From the NCBI GenBank assembly GCA_040007095.1, contig JBDTVS010000181.1, positions 1,643-65,642 of the forward strand: a DNA stretch of 64,000 bases, in the 5' to 3' direction. Below the pieces are notes generated by a model that saw nothing but the letters and a program-made list of their open reading frames with translations, was not told where the DNA came from and did no database searches. Position 1 is the stretch's first letter. Every line of letters begins with the position of its first letter. A program made the translations under genes and the position numbers. This DNA comes from Acidobacteriota bacterium. GTDB lineage: Bacteria; Acidobacteriota; Vicinamibacteria; Vicinamibacterales; CAVVIG01. Of this stretch, positions 49,021 through 58,337 are shown one piece after another.

Positions 49021-49393
49021 GGCGACTCCAGTAGCACTGAGGTCCGCGAAAGAACAGTTTGCCGCCGCCGCATTTCAACGTTGTTCTTCCACGGGCCCGA
49101 AGATCCCCGAGCGCAAAGCACTGCTGGGGTTTGACGACAGGCAACCGTAGATGGTCGAAGCATTAGACCCCTCCTCGACGATCGCCTTCAGGGCACCCGC
49201 CTGTCGGTCGCCTCGACACGTCAATATAGCGCCCGCCACGGTACTCCATCTACGTTCTTGGACCCGACGCGATTCGAGGCGGTTCTATCGCAACTGGGCA
49301 ATTCCGCGGCCTGGCGTACGGCGCCGAACACGGCTGCCGTTTCTTTCACAATGGGACCTTCTGAGGCGGCTGGTCCGGGTGTATCCTCCCTCA

Positions 49394-50470
49394 ATGAAGC
49401 CTCCCGCCAGGATTCGCGGCGATATCCCATCGAAGGAGGACCAGTCAATATCAAGGGCCAGCCATTGGCTGGTTGGCCTGACGGTCGTACTGGTTTTGCT
49501 CGTGAATAGATCCGCATCGACCGCCCCAGTGGGCGGAGAAGGTGCCGCGGCGGCTCTGGTCGCGCAGAAGGCGCCGGGTTTTGTCACGCCTCGAACGCCG
49601 TGGGGCGACCCTGATTTGAATGGCATCTGGCCGAGCATCGACATGGTCCGGGTCCCGATGCAGCGTCCGGCGATCTACGGCTCCCGCTTGTTCATGACGG
49701 CGCTGGAACACAGCGTGCTGGAGAAGCAGGAGCAGGAACGGATCGTCCAGATGGCGAACGAAGGCGCGGGCGGCGCAACCGGCGCGCCGGGGCATTGGGT
49801 GGAGTGGGGCAAGTCCCAACGGCAGACGTCGCTGATCGTCGATCCACCGGACGGCCATATGCCGGCGCTGACTCCGGCAGGGCAGGCGCGCACGGCGTCG
49901 GCGCCGAGAGGCACCATGGGGTCCACCTCCCTCAATGGGCCGGAAGACTTCACGATGTGGGAGCGCTGCTTGTCGCGTGGTGCGCTTGGCTCGACGCTGC
50001 CGGTGCTCTACAACAGCGGGATTGACATCACCCAGGGACCCGGTGTCATCGCGATTCGTTACGAGATGGTGCACGATCAGCGGATCATTCCGCTCGACGG
50101 CCGCCCGCACCTCGCGGCGTCCATCCGGCAGTACATGGGTGATGCACGCGGCCGATGGGATGGCGACACGCTGGTCGTCGAAACCACGAACTTTACCGAT
50201 CGCATCGGCGTAGGCATCAGCGGTGGAGGCACGCCAAACAGCCCGTCGATGCGGCTGGTCGAGCGGTTCACCCGGACGGCGAAAGACACGATTCGATATG
50301 TCGCGACGGTCGACGATCCCGAGACCTGGACGGCGCCCTGGACGGTGGCTTTCCCCCTGACGCGGATGCCCGAGTACGGGATGTTCGAGTACGCATGCCA
50401 CGAGGGAAATTACGGGCTGCGCAATGCGTTGAGCGGATCACGCGCGGTGGAGCAGCTGGCAGTGCCGTAA
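49394..50470 (+). CDS. Exported protein of unknown function (Cys-pair family, paralogue 3)
   Basis: Motifs TPWGDPDLNGIW, ERCLSRG, PLDGRPH, MGDARGRWDGDTLVVETT, FEYACHEGN. Start uncertain. Confidence 0.82.
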   Translation: MKPPARIRGDIPSKEDQSISRASHWLVGLTVVLVLLVNRSASTAPVGGEGAAAALVAQKAPGFVTPRTPWGDPDLNGIWPSIDMVRVPMQRPAIYGSRLFMTALEHSVLEKQEQERIVQMANEGAGGATGAPGHWVEWGKSQRQTSLIVDPPDGHMPALTPAGQARTASAPRGTMGSTSLNGPEDFTMWERCLSRGALGSTLPVLYNSGIDITQGPGVIAIRYEMVHDQRIIPLDGRPHLAASIRQYMGDARGRWDGDTLVVETTNFTDRIGVGISGGGTPNSPSMRLVERFTRTAKDTIRYVATVDDPETWTAPWTVAFPLTRMPEYGMFEYACHEGNYGLRNALSGSRAVEQLAVP

Positions 50471-50478
50471 CTCACTGC

Positions 50479-51258
50479 CTACTTCCCGACCATGTGCGCC
50501 AGGTCCTTGTTGTTCTCTTCGCAGATGCTCTCGATCAGATCCGTATCGGGAAGCAGACTCCAGGACAGCGTCACCGACCACGGCTTCGTGTACGCCTTCG
50601 GATCGTCGATGGTCACGTCAACATTGATATGTCCGATGGTCGGACGAGAAAAACGCTCGACCACGCGCAGCGCCTCCGTGGCGGGAAGCCCGCGCATGTC
50701 GAGCCACGTCCGGCCATTCTGGCCGATGGTTTCCACCACCAGGGTGTCCCCGTCCCACTTGCCGACGGAGTAGCCCATCCAGGTTGGTTGAGGATTTCGC
50801 GGGAGCGGGCGGCCGTCTGTGAAGATCTGGCGGTAGATCGTGCGCGATTCGTGCAGGAACACGATCAGGTCGGGAGTCTGCACCAGCTTGAGACCGTCGG
50901 GAATGTTGTTCTTTTCGGGAATGCCCGAAGGCCAACACCGCGCGCCGGGGTGATCCTTGCCGTTGGTCTCAATGCGCTCTTTGTAGAGCGCGTCCGCCCA
51001 GGGTTGCAGCGGCACCTCGCCCGGCTTCAGGTCCGCGGCAAGATTGAGCAGGTGCTTGACCGGATTGGTCGGCATCCAGAACCCCGAAAGGTCCGGCTTC
51101 CCGTCGGCGGTGCGACGTGCCGGCGCTCCCATATCCACCTTGCCGTCGGCGGTGCGGGGCACGTTCTTCCACGGAAACGGATCCCATTGTGCCTCGGAGG
51201 GGGACCCCGTGATGAGGATCGCCACGCAAGCCAGCGCACGCACAAATGCTTTCATCAT
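50479..51258 (-). CDS. Exported protein of unknown function (Cys-pair family, paralogue 4)
   Basis: GGAG RBS. Motifs PDLSGFW, RCWPSG, FTDGRP, WMGYSVGKWDGDTLVVET, ESICEEN. Confidence 0.88.
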   Translation of the reverse strand: MMKAFVRALACVAILITGSPSEAQWDPFPWKNVPRTADGKVDMGAPARRTADGKPDLSGFWMPTNPVKHLLNLAADLKPGEVPLQPWADALYKERIETNGKDHPGARCWPSGIPEKNNIPDGLKLVQTPDLIVFLHESRTIYRQIFTDGRPLPRNPQPTWMGYSVGKWDGDTLVVETIGQNGRTWLDMRGLPATEALRVVERFSRPTIGHINVDVTIDDPKAYTKPWSVTLSWSLLPDTDLIESICEENNKDLAHMVGK

Positions 51259-51366
51259 GTCGGCTCCATGGCGCGACGATTCGGCCGCGCGGGAAAACGG
51301 AAGACAGGACATGTATACCCTAATTCCCGTCAGGCCGCAGCAGGCCGCGTGCGAAAATACGGGGCC

Positions 51367-52275
51367 ATGTTCAGGTCCCTGACGCTTCTTCTCATCGTCT
51401 CGACCGCAATCATGTCGGCGCAATCCGCGGCTCCTGGCAGCCAACCGCCGGCCCCCGCCAGCCCGGTGGCATCCGCCCTCTGGACCGTCACGGAAGGGAT
51501 GGACAGTCCGGAAAGCGTGTATTTCGATCCAGCGTCAGGTTTGGTGTTCGTCTCGCAAATCGGTGGCCAGGCCGCGGACCGCGATGGCAATGGCCGCATC
51601 TCGAAGCTGACCGTCGAGGGCAGAGTAGTAGCGGCGGACTGGGTGAAAGGACTGAACGCGCCCAAGGGACTGCGGAGCCGTCAAGGCACGCTCTACGCGG
51701 CGGATCTTGACGAAATCGTGGCCATCGACGTTGCGCGCGGAACGATCACCTCGAGGATCAAGATCGAGGGGGCGCAGTTCCTGAACGACCTCGCCACCGC
51801 GCCCGACGGCGCCATTTATACGTCCGATTCGTTCGCGAACAGAATTTACGTGGTCAGGGACGGGAAGGCGTCGACGTTCTTCGAAGGAGACGGCATCCTC
51901 CTCCCGAACGGTGTGCTCGTCGATGGCAACCGGTTGATCGTTGCGTCCGACGGTCGGCCGGCCCGCGGCGGAGGCGGCACACCGGCGCGGCTGGTCGCGA
52001 TCGACCTGGCCACCAAACAGCTCACGCAAATCAACACTGCGCCGATCGGCACGCCGGACGGTATTGAACGGGACGGCCGTGGCGGCTACATCGTGAGCGA
52101 CGTGGCCTCGGGGCGCATCCTGCAGCTGTCGGCCAGCGGCGACGTGAAGGTGTTGCGTCAACTCGCGCCGCAAACCGCCGACATCGGATTCGTCCCCGAG
52201 AAGGCGCTTCTGCTCGTTCCGCACCTCGGGCTGAATCGGGTGTCCGCCTACGATCTCCCGGAACTGAAGCGCTAG
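51367..52275 (+). CDS. SMP-30/gluconolactonase/LRE-like beta-propeller, exported
   Basis: Signal peptide from ATG 51367. Motifs SPESVYFD, LNAPKGL, FLNDLA, PNGV, PDGIE, ADIG. Confidence 0.88.
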   Translation: MFRSLTLLLIVSTAIMSAQSAAPGSQPPAPASPVASALWTVTEGMDSPESVYFDPASGLVFVSQIGGQAADRDGNGRISKLTVEGRVVAADWVKGLNAPKGLRSRQGTLYAADLDEIVAIDVARGTITSRIKIEGAQFLNDLATAPDGAIYTSDSFANRIYVVRDGKASTFFEGDGILLPNGVLVDGNRLIVASDGRPARGGGGTPARLVAIDLATKQLTQINTAPIGTPDGIERDGRGGYIVSDVASGRILQLSASGDVKVLRQLAPQTADIGFVPEKALLLVPHLGLNRVSAYDLPELKR

Positions 52276-54274: not shown

Positions 54275-54850
54275 TTACTTTGCTTCGAGCGCCTTGGCGA
54301 TGGCGCCGCGCAGTTGCGGCGACTCGGGTGTCACGTCGCTCGGGAAGAACGCGAGAATCCTGCCGTCCTTACCGATGACGTATTTGCTGAAGTTCCAGGC
54401 CGGCAGGTGGCCTTGCCGGCCCAGGAAGGCGTAGACAGGTGATTGATCGGCGCCAGACTTCGTCACGACCTTCGAGAACATCGGGAAGGTGACGTCGTAG
54501 GTCAGCTTGCAAAACTGGGCGATTTCCTGCGGCGTGCCGGGCTCCTGTTCGCCGAAGTCGTTGCTCGGGAACCCAAGCACGGCAAATCCTTTCGGCGCGA
54601 GCTCGCGGTTCAGCTTCTCGAGGCCTTCGTATTGCGGGGTGAAGCCGCACTTGCTGGCCACATTGACCACCAGCGCGACTTTGCCGCGGAAGGCGGCGAG
54701 GTCGGCCGGCTTGCCGTCCAGGTACGAAGTCTTCAGGTCGTAAAACGATGACACGGTCGCTCCTGCTGGCCGCGATTGCGCGGCGGGAATGGAGGTGGCG
54801 GCGGCGAAGGCGACAACAAAGCCATAGGCGACAGTACGGCGATTCAGCAT
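54275..54850 (-). CDS. Glutathione peroxidase (Cys type), exported
   Basis: Motifs NVASKCGFTPQY, FPSNDFGEQEPG, WNFSKY. The active-site codon is TGC. Confidence 0.93.
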   Translation of the reverse strand: MLNRRTVAYGFVVAFAAATSIPAAQSRPAGATVSSFYDLKTSYLDGKPADLAAFRGKVALVVNVASKCGFTPQYEGLEKLNRELAPKGFAVLGFPSNDFGEQEPGTPQEIAQFCKLTYDVTFPMFSKVVTKSGADQSPVYAFLGRQGHLPAWNFSKYVIGKDGRILAFFPSDVTPESPQLRGAIAKALEAK

Positions 54851-55071
54851 CTTGTCTCTCCTGACGTCAGTCACTCATATTGTAGAGCGTATTTTGTCCG
54901 GTTCGGGCCTGTCGATTTCGGGCGCGCCCGATCGACAATAGCCAGTAGGCATTCGCGACGGCAGTCGAGCGGCCAACTCGACGCCACACACGGGTGACGC
55001 CTGACGGCGGCGCCGTCCGATAGAGGTGTGGCCTGTTGGAGCACAGACATTCGGCCAAGAAGGAGTGAACA

Positions 55072-56187
55072 ATGAGCGGGGTCCGCGTACTGGTTGGCAC
55101 ACGAAAGGGCGCGTTCGTCCTGGAGTCGGACGGAAAGCGCGAACGCTGGGACGTCAGCGGTCCTCATTTTGGAGGGTGGGAGATCTATCACGTGAAGGGA
55201 TCCGCGGTTGAGCCGAATCGTCTCTACGCGTCGCAATCGAGCGGCTGGTTCGGGCAGATCATCCAGCGCTCCGACGACGGCGGCAAGACGTGGGCAACGG
55301 TGGACAACAAGTTCACGTACGACGGCATTCCAGGCACGCACCAGTGGTACGACGGCACGCCGCATCCCTGGGAGTTCAAACGCGTGTGGCACCTCGAACC
55401 CTCGTTGACCGATCCGGACACGGTGTATGCCGGGGTCGAAGACGCGGCATTGTTCAAGAGCGCCGACGGTGGACAGTCGTGGCACGAACTGTCGGGCCTG
55501 CGCGGCCACGGGTCAGGCCCACGCTGGCAGCCAGGCGCCGGGGGGATGTGCCTCCATACGATCGTCCTTGATCCTGGCAAACCCGCTCGGATCTTCATCG
55601 CGATCTCGGCAGCGGGCGCGTTCCGGAGCGACGACGGCGGTGAGACGTGGCGGCCGATCAACCAGGGGCTGCGGTCGGCACAGATTCCGGACCCGACGGC
55701 CGAAGTGGGCCACTGCGTGCATCGCATCGCGATGCACAAGGCGCGGCCCGACGTGCTGTTCATGCAGAAGCACTGGGACGTCATGCGCACCGACAACGCC
55801 GGCGAGTCGTGGCACGAGGTCAGCGGCAATCTGCCCACCGACTTCGGATTCGCGATCGACGTGCACGCGCACGAGCCGGACACCATCTACGTCGTGCCGA
55901 TCAAGAGCGACTCCGAGCACTATCCGATCGACGGAAAGCTGAGCGTCTATCGCAGCCGGACCGGCGGCCACGAGTGGGAGGCGCTTTCGAACGGCCTGCC
56001 GCAGCGCGACTGTTATGTGAACGTCTTGCGCGACGCCATGGCGGTCGACGCACTCGATGCGTGCGGCGTGTACTTCGGGACAACGGGCGGGCAGGTGTAT
56101 GCCTCGGCTGACGCCGGCGACCATTGGGCGCCGATTGTTCGAGATCTGCCGGCGGTGCTGTCGGTCGAGGTCCAGACACTGCCATGA
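55072..56187 (+). CDS. BNR/Asp-box beta-propeller protein (sialidase-like fold), cytoplasmic
   Basis: Asp-box repeats [49 protein letters not shown], no signal peptide. Confidence 0.9.
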
Positions 56188-56480
56188 TTCGCGTCGAGCT
56201 GCCGGCCCATCTGCGGACGCTGGCGCACGTCGCCGACGAGGTCCAGCTCGAGGTCGGCAGCCCGGCCACCCAGCGCTCGGTCCTCGACGCGCTCGAAGCC
56301 CGCTATCCGATGTTGCGCGGGACCATCCGCGACCATGTGACCCAGCGTCGCCGGCCGTTCGTGAGGTTCTTTGCCTGCGAACAGGACTTGTCACACGAAC
56401 TGCCGGATGCGGCACTGCCCGACGCCGTGGCGACAGGCGCCGAGCCGCTGCTGGTCGTAGGGGCCATGGCCGGGGGGTAG
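56184..56480 (+). CDS. MoaD/ThiS family ubiquitin-like protein
   Basis: [10 protein letters not shown]...RFF...AMAGG with C-terminal Gly-Gly. ATGA overlap with the propeller gene. Confidence 0.9.
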
Positions 56481-56624: not shown

Positions 56625-58337
56625 GTGCGAAGATACTCGGCCTTGGGCCTGTCCACCACGTCAACGAGTACGGTCCGCCGCATCGCGATCTGGGCGCCCA
56701 TCCTCGCGGCCCTGTTCGTGTTCCGGCTGCTGTTCGGGCTGTCCAACGAGTTCTTCTTCGAGGACGAGACGCAGATCTTTCTCATGGGTCTGCGCTATTA
56801 CGCCACGGGGGCGTGGCCGTATTTTGGCCCCGATGTGGTCTGGACCAAGAGCGAGATCCCCGGCGCGCTGCAATCGTTGCTGGTCGGTTTTCCATTCAAA
56901 ATCGTGCCGGTGCCCGAAGCGCCGTTCGTGTTTCTCAATCTGATTTCGATGACGGCGCTTGCGGGTTTCGCGTGGTATCTCACAAGGCGACTCCCGTCGA
57001 TCCCCAGGTGGCTCGTGTGGGGCTGGTTGATGACGCTGCCGTGGACCCTCGAGTTCTCGACGCATGTCATCAACCCGTCGTACGTGCTGGCGCCCGCGCT
57101 CGTATTTTTCGTCGGCTTTTTCGAAGCCGTGCCTGTCTTCCGGCGGGGGCTGGTCCCGCTGCCGACGGCGTTCTTCATGATCGGCGCGGCGATCCCGTGG
57201 GTGCTTCAGGTCCACATGTCGTGGCCGCTGCTGCTGCCGTATGCCGCGCTCGCCCTGCTGTCGCGGCGGTCGGACGGCGTCGCGTCGCTCGCGCGGCACG
57301 CTGCCGCGATGCTGTGCGGTCTCCTCGTGTTCGGCGTCTTTCTGGTGCCGACCCTTTTGCGGTATGGCTGGCAGGCCGGAGGAGGCGGTACCGCCAGAAA
57401 CATTCACCCGCATTGGGTGAATCCGTGGGTTGCCGTTACAACACTGGCTCGCTTCTTTTCCTTTGCCAGCTTCGAGATCGCGCGATTCGTCGCGCCCGAC
57501 AGCGGCAAGCGTCTGGTGCTCTTCCTGCGGCATCTCTGGCTGGCGCCGATCGCGGTGATCGTGTGGATCCTCGGTGTCTGGCAGCCGCTGTGGATGCTGA
57601 AGGAATGGGGCCGCAGCCGCTCGCCATATGCTGAGTGGCCCGCCTTGAGATGGCTCGTCGCCGGCACGGTCGCCATCGTCTACGCCAGCTATTGGTTCGT
57701 CATCGAACCCCCGCAGGCCCATGCGTTCTATGTCGTGGCGCCCGTCGCCATGACGTTCGCCGCGTACTGCTGGACGTTCGTCGACGGTTCCCGCTGGCGG
57801 CGAATTGCGGCCGGCGGGTTGGCCGCGAATCTCGCATTCCACGCGGGACTGGCCCTGGCTCAGGCGCCCGACAAGTCGCTGTATCGAAACCGGACGCCCG
57901 TCGCCGCTGCAGTGCGGCTCAAACAGCCGGAGATGTTTGGCCATCGCCGGGCGTTCGCCGTAGATGGCGGGCCGCTGCTGCTTGACGATCCGTCCCGGCC
58001 GTACGACAACCGGCACGATATCCAGTTTTCCGCAGTGAACCGCCGGACTGGTCCGTATCGGGTCGTGCTCTGGACGCTGCGCCTGACGAACCACAACGAG
58101 CGCGTCGCCTTTCGAGACGTGCTCTACCAGACCGCGTATCGCGATGAGAGCGGACGAGTCGTCGACGAACGATACGACTACATCAAGGACATTTTTCAGC
58201 CCGGCGACGTGCGTGACATCGAAATCAACGATGGGATCGTCAGCGCTCGCTTTGCATCGGCGACTATTGTCATGGCCGGCGCCGAAGCGTTGCTCCCCGC
58301 TGTCCTCGATTCGCCGACACAATCGAGAAATCCATAG
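56625..58337 (+). CDS. Polytopic membrane protein, GT-C (ArnT/PMT-like) glycosyltransferase candidate
   Basis: Acidic EFFFEDE after the first TM, many TM helices, NPSY and QVHMS motifs, C-terminal soluble domain. Confidence 0.75.
   Translation: MRRYSALGLSTTSTSTVRRIAIWAPILAALFVFRLLFGLSNEFFFEDETQIFLMGLRYYATGAWPYFGPDVVWTKSEIPGALQSLLVGFPFKIVPVPEAPFVFLNLISMTALAGFAWYLTRRLPSIPRWLVWGWLMTLPWTLEFSTHVINPSYVLAPALVFFVGFFEAVPVFRRGLVPLPTAFFMIGAAIPWVLQVHMSWPLLLPYAALALLSRRSDGVASLARHAAAMLCGLLVFGVFLVPTLLRYGWQAGGGGTARNIHPHWVNPWVAVTTLARFFSFASFEIARFVAPDSGKRLVLFLRHLWLAPIAVIVWILGVWQPLWMLKEWGRSRSPYAEWPALRWLVAGTVAIVYASYWFVIEPPQAHAFYVVAPVAMTFAAYCWTFVDGSRWRRIAAGGLAANLAFHAGLALAQAPDKSLYRNRTPVAAAVRLKQPEMFGHRRAFAVDGGPLLLDDPSRPYDNRHDIQFSAVNRRTGPYRVVLWTLRLTNHNERVAFRDVLYQTAYRDESGRVVDERYDYIKDIFQPGDVRDIEINDGIVSARFASATIVMAGAEALLPAVLDSPTQSRNP

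Follow-up and report, generated by a model that had tools for sequence, protein, structure and literature searches.

Results

The propeller and Ubl genes form a conserved pair

A window of 64,000 nt from an Acidobacteriota bacterium (GCA_040007095.1, contig JBDTVS010000181.1, positions 1,643 to 65,642, forward strand) harbors a gene for a beta-propeller protein which is translationally coupled with a gene for a small ubiquitin-like protein (Ubl) ending in Gly-Gly. The two genes were found side by side in all 80 orthologous loci identified, and we consider it very probable that their products are specific physical partners. We propose that the Ubl is a sulfur carrier and the propeller its metal-containing acceptor, that the carrier is activated by a shared MoeZ-type E1 enzyme, and that the operon is read in many lineages from a stress promoter of the ECF42 type (extracytoplasmic function, ECF, sigma factors). 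To this complete chain we assign a probability of about 0.4. The pair comprises the following features, with the open reading frame (ORF) of the propeller read from the sequence.

55060-55065, plus strand: Shine-Dalgarno sequence AAGGAG of the propeller gene, 6 nt before the ATG at 55072
55072-56187, plus strand: propeller gene, 371 aa
56184-56187, plus strand: ATGA overlap (translational coupling) of the Ubl start codon ATG 56184-56186 with the propeller stop codon TGA 56185-56187
56184-56480, plus strand: Ubl gene, 98 aa, product ending in ...VGAMAGG; Gly-Gly codons 56472-56477, stop codon 56478-56480

A first-pass annotation of this DNA had described the ATGA overlap and a 98-aa Ubl ending in GG, and both were read directly in the sequence at these coordinates. 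It had also suggested a dedicated two-component system and named conservation of the neighborhood across phyla as a check. A scan of a genome collection yielded 80 loci with propellers 78-86% identical to that of the window, hereafter called subfamily A. Their taxonomy labels covered 12 named phyla, among them Acidobacteriota, Actinomycetota, Gemmatimonadota, Planctomycetota, Chloroflexota, Verrucomicrobiota, and Methylomirabilota. The pair was kept throughout this sample, with the Ubl gene directly downstream of the propeller gene in 80 of 80 loci, which is far beyond chance; the same 4-nt overlap was present in 59 of the 76 complete orthologous cases on which overlap and C-terminus counts are based. 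All-against-all clustering of ORFs within +/-6 kb revealed no third gene conserved around the pair in the 80 loci, and no E1, E2 or JAB gene was conserved there. A third component was also absent from 26 subfamily-B and plasmid loci, except for a tandem-YCII gene in four.

The propeller family consists of 1451 clusters at 50% identity (E < 1e-30). Besides subfamily A, which is ultra-conserved, it contains numerous paralogous subfamilies with identities of 32-48%. Twenty loci with propellers in this range were inspected in the window's own phylum. In 17 of them, a Ubl of the ThiS type with the C-terminus (A/S)xSGG was located within 1 kb of the paralogous propeller; most of these Ubl genes follow the propeller gene, three precede it, and one is continuous with its reading frame. 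Inspection of a 5-kb stretch in the remaining three loci revealed no Ubl. Two plasmid-borne paralogues, of Streptomyces and Fuscovulum, have no room for a Ubl beside the propeller. The RefSeq or GenBank annotations of Ralstonia solanacearum and Mitsuaria show a 'MoaD/ThiS family protein' immediately upstream of an 'exo-alpha-sialidase', and three distinct natural Ubl-propeller fusion proteins were identified. Among the non-A pairs, propeller identities correlated with Ubl identities (Mantel r = 0.86, equalled by 0 of 300 permutations); hence, the pairs apparently duplicated and diverged as units. Adjacency, overlap, reversed gene order in paralogous pairs, fusions and co-divergence together support the dedicated partnership that had been suggested.

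The orthologous propellers aligned without gaps in 73 of 80 cases, with a mean protein identity to the window of about 83%. Four-fold degenerate sites in these 73 showed an identity of 0.46, as compared to 0.35 expected from composition, and GC content at third codon positions (GC3) ranged from 0.54 to 0.97. With synonymous sites near saturation at about 83% protein identity, selection on the protein must be ancient and very strongly purifying. Three findings led us to reject recent horizontal transfer as the source of this cross-phylum identity: the near-saturation of four-fold sites, a GC3 that varies with the host, and the grouping of the orthologue tree by phylum (16 label changes versus 25.5 with shuffled labels). 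Such conservation is stronger than would be expected for most housekeeping proteins. Nevertheless, the pair is accessory and patchy: among 301 genomes sampled from the window's phylum, subfamily A was found in about 46 (~15%) and any family member in 80.

The Ubl is predicted to adopt the fold of sulfur carriers

An AlphaFold2 model of the Ubl, built on a 63-sequence alignment, reached a predicted local distance difference test (pLDDT) score of 90 and a predicted template modeling score (pTM) of 0.82. A Foldseek search with this model returned SAMP1 (3po0) first, with E 2.5e-5 and template modeling (TM) scores of 0.75/0.82, followed by CysO (4n6e_B and 3dwg_C), MoaD, and Urm1. By its predicted structure, the Ubl is a beta-grasp protein of the MoaD/CysO/SAMP1 type. 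G97 and G98 were invariant in 63 orthologues; R56, R57, F63, C65, D68, S70, and H71 are invariant or nearly so in subfamily A, which has its own conserved motif RRPF-x-RFFAC-xx-D-x-SH. The Ubls of paralogous pairs do carry the ThiS family domain PF02597, and the window Ubl aligns with them.

The chain stops right after AGG in 68 of the 76 orthologues. Five have two or three residues past GG (AI, CF, QI, CY, QWV), and these extensions resemble the CF extension of QbsE, which is removed by a JAMM peptidase. The Ubl frame runs on past AGG in the remaining three, into a YjbR domain, an AAA ATPase and an 18-aa tail. The continuation into a classical AAA ATPase (PF00004) was observed at L075:7110-8867 and that into a YjbR-family domain (PF04237) at L012:1200-1886; each is a single case and could be a real fusion or a lost stop codon. 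The predominance of GG-stop, the few short extensions, and the presence in the genome of a JAMM peptidase and of a CysO-GG-MoeZ fusion suggest that a free Gly-Gly end matters.

The propeller belongs to the 3B7F family

More than 8000 homologues of the propeller were found, and among the matches listed most were about 85% identical. Pfam searches revealed three BNR repeats (E 1.7e-12) and Sortilin-Vps10 (E 5e-14), and six Asp-boxes (SxDxGxxW) were read by eye. No N-terminal hydrophobic segment or signal peptide was present in the propeller; the chain starts with the conserved first strand. The structure 3b7f_A matched the protein over its full length (residues 4-366, E 4.2e-67). From these sequence features, the protein is assigned to subfamily A of the 3B7F family as a predicted cytoplasmic, seven-bladed Asp-box beta-propeller, which agrees with the cytoplasmic Asp-box propeller named by the first-pass annotation.

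3B7F is a structural-genomics entry for Reut_B4987 (YP_299179.1) of Ralstonia eutropha JMP134, with its function listed as 'not known' (PMC2716378). It is seven-bladed and was the only Asp-box propeller known to lack 1+3 Velcro closure (PMC2716378). The entry is labelled 'putative glycosyl hydrolase with BNR repeats'. It represents a different subfamily, the beta-proteobacterial relatives of the window propeller being 31-35% identical; it lacks Cys215, with Asp in this position, and the subfamily-A insertion described below, and its beta-proteobacterial relatives have the MoaD/ThiS gene immediately upstream and not downstream as in the window.

An AlphaFold2 model of the natural fusion P0248, which contains a paralogous propeller, was obtained with pLDDT 79.8 and pTM 0.75. 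It matched 3b7f with a TM score of 0.86 normalized to the target; the next Foldseek hits were GH74 enzymes, DAIP, Ycf48 with a D1 peptide, and sortilin with neurotensin. Sortilin Vps10-neurotensin, Ycf48-D1 peptide and DAIP-thermolysin fragment share the Asp-box propeller fold and are known as complexes with a peptide or fragment in the PDB; they are, however, distant (TM 0.2-0.6), and most differ in blade number or cellular location.

Several database identities were rejected. A GH33 sialidase would have an FRIP motif and a catalytic domain, but 'RIP' is absent from the sequence, no catalytic-domain model matched, and a signal peptide is missing; PDB sialidases aligned only with a 29-residue Asp-box stretch (E >= 0.16). 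The statement that the protein is not a sialidase thus stands. GH74 xyloglucanases need two tandem seven-bladed propellers, and the window protein has a single one in 371 aa; GH74 chains (700-770 aa) matched in part only (TM ~0.3 on the target). Ycf48/HCF136 was dismissed with 20.6 bits for PF14870 (cut-off 27) and 20.4 bits for NF010237 (cut-off 326).

Some metagenomic homologues, P0003-P0006 and P0009, are longer. Fusions or eight-bladed variants were rejected for them; one or two of their blades are repeated exactly within the chain, and they are most likely assembly artefacts. The paralogous propellers P0139 (704 aa) and P0207 have extra N-terminal sequence, which in P0139 looks like a Ser/Thr protein kinase by eye.

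Conserved polar residues outline a candidate pocket

Conservation within the propeller was determined with an alignment of 36 representatives at 36-81% identity (alignment A2) and with a separate set of 27 diverse loci. The positions concerned are as follows.

55333-55383, plus strand: His/Trp-rich insertion of subfamily A, residues 88-104 (alignment A2)
55555-56031, plus strand: span of the invariant polar set, with codons H162 55555-55557, C215 55714-55716, H217 55720-55722, Q232 55765-55767, H234 55771-55773, and R320 56029-56031

W152, H162, H217, Q232, H234, and R320 were identical in all 27 diverse members, and several pocket positions were near-invariant in alignment A2. H146 and H265 are mostly conserved in the family. 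Position 215 is Cys in 22 of 27 and Asp in the other 5, as it is in 3B7F, where the invariant His, Gln, and Arg residues are retained. The motifs MCLHTIV, HCVHRI and QKHWDV, pointed out earlier as conserved-looking, are real and hold the invariant or near-invariant residues H162, C215, H217, Q232, and H234. Judged from this conservation, three His, Cys/Asp, Gln, and Arg probably form a mononuclear metal site or active-site pocket. The exchange of Cys for Asp at position 215 argues against an obligatory persulfide-accepting cysteine.

Blade topology would place the pocket residues at the starts of innermost strands and in the 4-1/2-3 loops, i.e., on the top face near the axis. The top face is the functional face in all known Asp-box propellers (PMC2716378). 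The N-terminal strand of 3B7F does not complete the last blade (PMC2716378); it is therefore taken to open the first blade, at the inner end of the top face. On that reading, the fusions would tether Gly-Gly within nine residues of the top face. In alignment A2, the window protein shares the residue 88-104 insertion with P0123 and P0125; P0196 and P0236 have it in another form, and the other 36-46% identical paralogues lack it. We speculate that it could form a composite site together with the conserved residues of the Ubl.

The propeller could also be a metal-dependent hydrolase acting on the C-terminus of the Ubl, which would then be a substrate and not a cofactor: it would trim extensions, cleave fusions or conjugates or hydrolyze the thiocarboxylate. 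The His-rich, metal-like pocket would suit such an enzyme, and the variants with two or three residues past GG as well as the GG-X fusions need a protease. However, most Ubls already end at GG, the genome encodes JAMM peptidases for this task, and a role in processing would not call for 1:1 co-divergence with a protein conserved to about 83%. We regard a hydrolase as very unlikely.

Other sulfur carriers of the genome are located beside their partners

The assembly to which the window belongs is 94% complete, and whole-genome searches were run over its other contigs. Two genes of the molybdenum cofactor (Moco) pathway were located on contig C185.

C185:37171-37515: MoaE, the only one in the genome
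C185:37638-37868: best-scoring ThiS-family gene (MoaD), beside MoaE

ThiS and ThiG are adjacent on contig C190. The only ThiF-family E1 of the assembly is an in-frame fusion of 493 aa encoded at C75:35504-36985, composed of CysO (SVAGG), MoeZ, and rhodanese. Its gene is accompanied by those for CysM (313 aa) and a JAMM peptidase of the Mec+ type (157 aa). The region C75:35504-38343 thereby holds a complete CysO/CysM-type cysteine pathway. A fourth MoaD/ThiS-family gene was observed at C73:71302-73299, immediately upstream of a 580-aa ORF resembling an aldehyde:ferredoxin oxidoreductase by eye; a MoaD-like gene with this oxidoreductase is a known type of Ubl association.

With a single E1 in the genome, all carriers must share it. 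Moreover, every other carrier is encoded beside its own acceptor or partner; therefore, the propeller occupies the position of the acceptor enzyme. The remark in the first-pass annotation that the pair lacks an E1 or biosynthetic genes nearby proved accurate: E1, MoaE, ThiG, CysM, and JAMM are all on other contigs. An anti-phage Ubl system (Bil, CBASS Cap2/Cap3) was rejected, neither protein matching any PADLOC model.

The same survey bears on the simplest alternative, namely that the two genes are coincidental neighbors, with an ordinary MoaD of Moco synthesis (or a ThiS) encoded next to a sialidase or glycosidase that has no relation to it. The database names 'exo-alpha-sialidase' and 'MoaD/ThiS family protein' as well as the weak ThiS Pfam match speak for it. 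Yet canonical MoaE-MoaD and ThiS-ThiG pairs are encoded elsewhere in the genome, the pair occurs without MoaE in 80 of 80 loci, and the propeller is a single one, unlike GH74, without signal peptide, FRIP or sialidase catalytic domain. The Ubl was accordingly rejected as MoaD of molybdopterin synthase: the only MoaE has its own MoaD on C185, and no MoaE cluster appeared in the 80 loci. The possibility that the Ubl simply serves Moco synthesis, which the first-pass annotation had named as part of what would refute its idea, is thus contradicted by the canonical pair, and we consider mere coincidence of the genes extremely improbable.

An E1 was present in 42 of 42 subfamily-A genomes tested. 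In one of them (G271, L114:3452-5167), an ORF of 571 aa encoding JAMM/MPN-ThiF-rhodanese is separated by 80 nt from the propeller-Ubl operon downstream; this ORF is preceded by an SRPBCC-like gene. G139 has a MoeZ gene that is oriented divergently to the pair, and a ThiF-family match was found in the same position in G001, which belongs to the same genus. The chance of two independent E1 adjacencies was roughly estimated at ~0.01.

Alternatively, both proteins may form a non-covalent heterodimer with the Ubl as a structural or regulatory subunit or a chaperone, its GG tail plugging or gating the pocket, and neither E1 nor sulfur chemistry would be involved. Strict 1:1 pairing, coupling and co-divergence fit an obligate complex of this kind. 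Furthermore, an E1 gene is almost never adjacent to the pair, fusions with buried GG exist, the structural neighbors include Asp-box propellers solved in complex with a peptide or protein fragment (Ycf48-D1 peptide, sortilin-neurotensin, DAIP-thermolysin fragment), and in subfamily A the Ubl has moved away from canonical carriers. On the other hand, GG-stop in 68 of 76 orthologues and the short extensions look like those of carriers in need of a free activatable carboxylate, an adjoining E1 gene does occur in two lineages and is in one case joined to JAMM and rhodanese domains, and the invariant His, Cys/Asp, Arg pocket looks catalytic and not like a simple docking site. A purely non-covalent role of the Ubl is, in our judgment, unlikely.

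The upstream region contains an ECF42-type motif

The region upstream of the pair comprises the following features.

54275-54874, minus strand: glutathione peroxidase (GPx) gene, divergent from the propeller gene (PF00255, E 1e-34)
54910-54936, plus strand: ECF42-type promoter-like motif TGTCGA-N17-CGAC, read in the sequence, with a palindromic core (TGTCGA-N17-TCGACA)

The 197-nt upstream interval contained no sigma-70-like promoter and no Rfam match (riboswitch or other known RNA). The strict motif was found upstream of the propeller in 12 other loci, and two variants were detected in addition, TGTCGT-N17-CGAC in L017 and TGTCGG-N17-CGTC in the alphaproteobacterial Hyphomicrobium locus L059; about 0.1 occurrences would be expected in 78 upstream regions from the density in the window's own genome. 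That genome contains the motif 57 times versus 19 expected, and three YCII genes as well as one ABM gene have a copy immediately in front of them. The promoters mapped for RpoE10 (ECF42) of S. meliloti read TGTCGG-N17-CGTC, and the RpoE10 regulon comprises YCII-linked, glyoxalase-like and hydrophobic-ligand-binding proteins (PMC6180224). The commonest neighbors of the pair in the 80 loci were YCII (13), ECF sigma factors with DUF6596 and TPR (11), HxlR (9), VOC (8), and SRPBCC. Sigma factor genes bearing DUF6596 are located on contigs C230 and C89 of the window's own genome and were present in 22 of 46 subfamily-A genomes as compared to 69 of 255 others. The ECF42 link is real but lineage-specific.

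In one paralogous subfamily (L101, L104, L098, L100), a 235-aa double-YCII protein (PF03795, E 1e-20) is encoded directly after the propeller; its gene is placed between propeller and Ubl in L101 and L104. This neighbor is a second, independent link of the pair to YCII/DGPF proteins.

The stress context also bears on a possible role of the Ubl as a modifier of the Urm1/SAMP/TtuB type, which would be conjugated to lysines and/or persulfidate cysteines under oxidative stress, with the propeller as receptor, E3-like adaptor or main target. Urm1-thiocarboxylate is reported to conjugate without E2 or E3 and to persulfidate peroxiredoxin cysteines (PMC9574740). SAMP1 and Urm1 are among the closest folds, a stress-sigma promoter and a divergent GPx gene are present here, ahpCF lies near the pair in Mitsuaria, and the kinase-like fusion of paralogue P0139 (by eye) suggests signaling. 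However, GPx and AhpC are not conserved neighbors. Asp at position 215 in several clades makes a universal persulfide-acceptor cysteine unlikely, a dedicated Ubl for each propeller paralogue fits an enzyme-carrier pair better than a general modifier, and neither protein has a PADLOC defense-system match. We consider a general modifier quite unlikely.

A model for the function of the pair

We return to the proposed carrier-acceptor pair. The Ubl would be a sulfur-carrier-type protein with the MoaD/CysO/SAMP1 fold, whose exposed Gly-Gly carboxylate would be adenylated and subsequently thiocarboxylated by the single shared MoeZ-type E1 with its rhodanese domain. The activated Ubl would then dock on its cognate seven-bladed Asp-box propeller. 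The top-face pocket (His3, Cys/Asp, Gln, Arg) would probably be a mononuclear metal site, and the propeller would act on the acceptor side like MoaE, ThiG, and CysM, transferring sulfur to a substrate or using it there. The operon would be read from an ECF42-type stress sigma-factor promoter, here and in several other lineages. Docking of the tail, metal binding, thiocarboxylation, enzyme activity, and sigma dependence are each inferred.

Several observations weigh against this proposal. The Ubl scored 16.5 bits against ThiS PF02597 (cut-off 22.5), the NCBIfam SAMP1 model was sub-threshold as well, and a profile search of PDB sequences gave no significant match, the best being SAMP1 at E ~1. 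E1 adjacency is rare (3 of 42 genomes, i.e., two lineages); tblastn detected no E1 within 6 kb in any of the 80 collection loci, so that the link by adjacency is suggestive only. Paralogous propellers with no Ubl in the stretch examined keep the pocket; hence, pocket chemistry is not strictly dependent on an adjacent Ubl. The GG segment (residues 87-90) of the P0248 fusion model had pLDDT < 50 and gives no information on docking, and fusions that bury GG would need processing. On the regulatory side, an ECF42-type sigma factor is absent from 52% of the carrier genomes. The window motif lies 36 nt upstream of the GPx start and, with its palindromic core, also reads on the minus strand; it may serve GPx instead of the pair, or both directions. 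Its extended form fits the orthologous plus-strand promoters better.

Full-text searches, which covered the pair, 3B7F and the targets of ECF42, yielded no paper describing the pair, and no paper describing a propeller as acceptor of a carrier was found. With a pair kept across at least 12 phyla and no published function found, the propeller probably constitutes a partner enzyme of a new type for carrier proteins. More tentatively, and with considerable doubt on our side, it may represent a previously unrecognized class of acceptor metalloenzyme: the thiocarboxylated tail (Ubl-COSH) would bind the His3-Cys/Asp metal center in the propeller hub and deliver sulfur to a thiol, persulfide or metal-sulfide product, as part of an ultra-conserved, ECF42-linked stress function in at least 12 phyla.

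Other genes of the window

A gene for a 570-aa polytopic membrane protein without a Pfam match (56625-58337, plus strand) starts 145 nt downstream of the Ubl gene; it is not kept beside the pair in other loci. Two convergent paralogous genes are located at 49151-50470 (plus strand) and 50479-51444 (minus strand). Their products, at least one of which looks secreted, share a C-terminal region '...WDGDTLVVET...VERF.R...DDP..(W/Y)T.PW.V...'; the 321-aa member, the one scanned, matched no Pfam family.

Discussion

The pair resembles MoaD-MoaE, ThiS-ThiG, CysO-CysM (3dwg), CysO-BexX (4n6e), and TtuB-TtuA in that a small beta-grasp protein ending in GG is encoded beside one specific partner. As in these carrier-acceptor pairs, the E1 is shared and encoded elsewhere, precursors extended past GG occur occasionally, and a JAMM peptidase is present in the genome. 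In contrast, the partner here is a seven-bladed Asp-box propeller, a fold not found among the acceptor enzymes compared; no pathway genes surround the pair, and the Ubl stays below the ThiS cut-off and has a motif of its own. With Urm1, SAMP, and TtuB the window Ubl shares fold, Gly-Gly tail and a plausible stress context, but it has a dedicated propeller partner, and each propeller paralogue has its own Ubl. The ECF42 regulons of S. meliloti (RpoE10) and S. venezuelae have the same TGTCG(A/G)-N17-CG(A/T)C promoters and the YCII/DGPF, glyoxalase-like and SRPBCC families in common with the surroundings of the pair; the pair itself is not among the RpoE10 targets reported in PMC6180224.

Ubiquitin signaling has its prokaryotic roots in sulfur-carrier and ubiquitin-like proteins. 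To our knowledge, each newly found partner enzyme brought a new sulfur-insertion chemistry, as for thiamin, Moco, cysteine, thiosugars, and tRNA thiolation. Cultured bacteria carrying the genes include Paludibaculum, Acidipila, and Granulicella for subfamily A, and Ralstonia, Cupriavidus, and Burkholderia for a paralogous subfamily. Assigning a function would correct thousands of 'sialidase' annotations and would give the ECF42 regulon, the output of which is largely obscure, a concrete biochemical activity; the pair might furthermore reveal new sulfur or metal chemistry.

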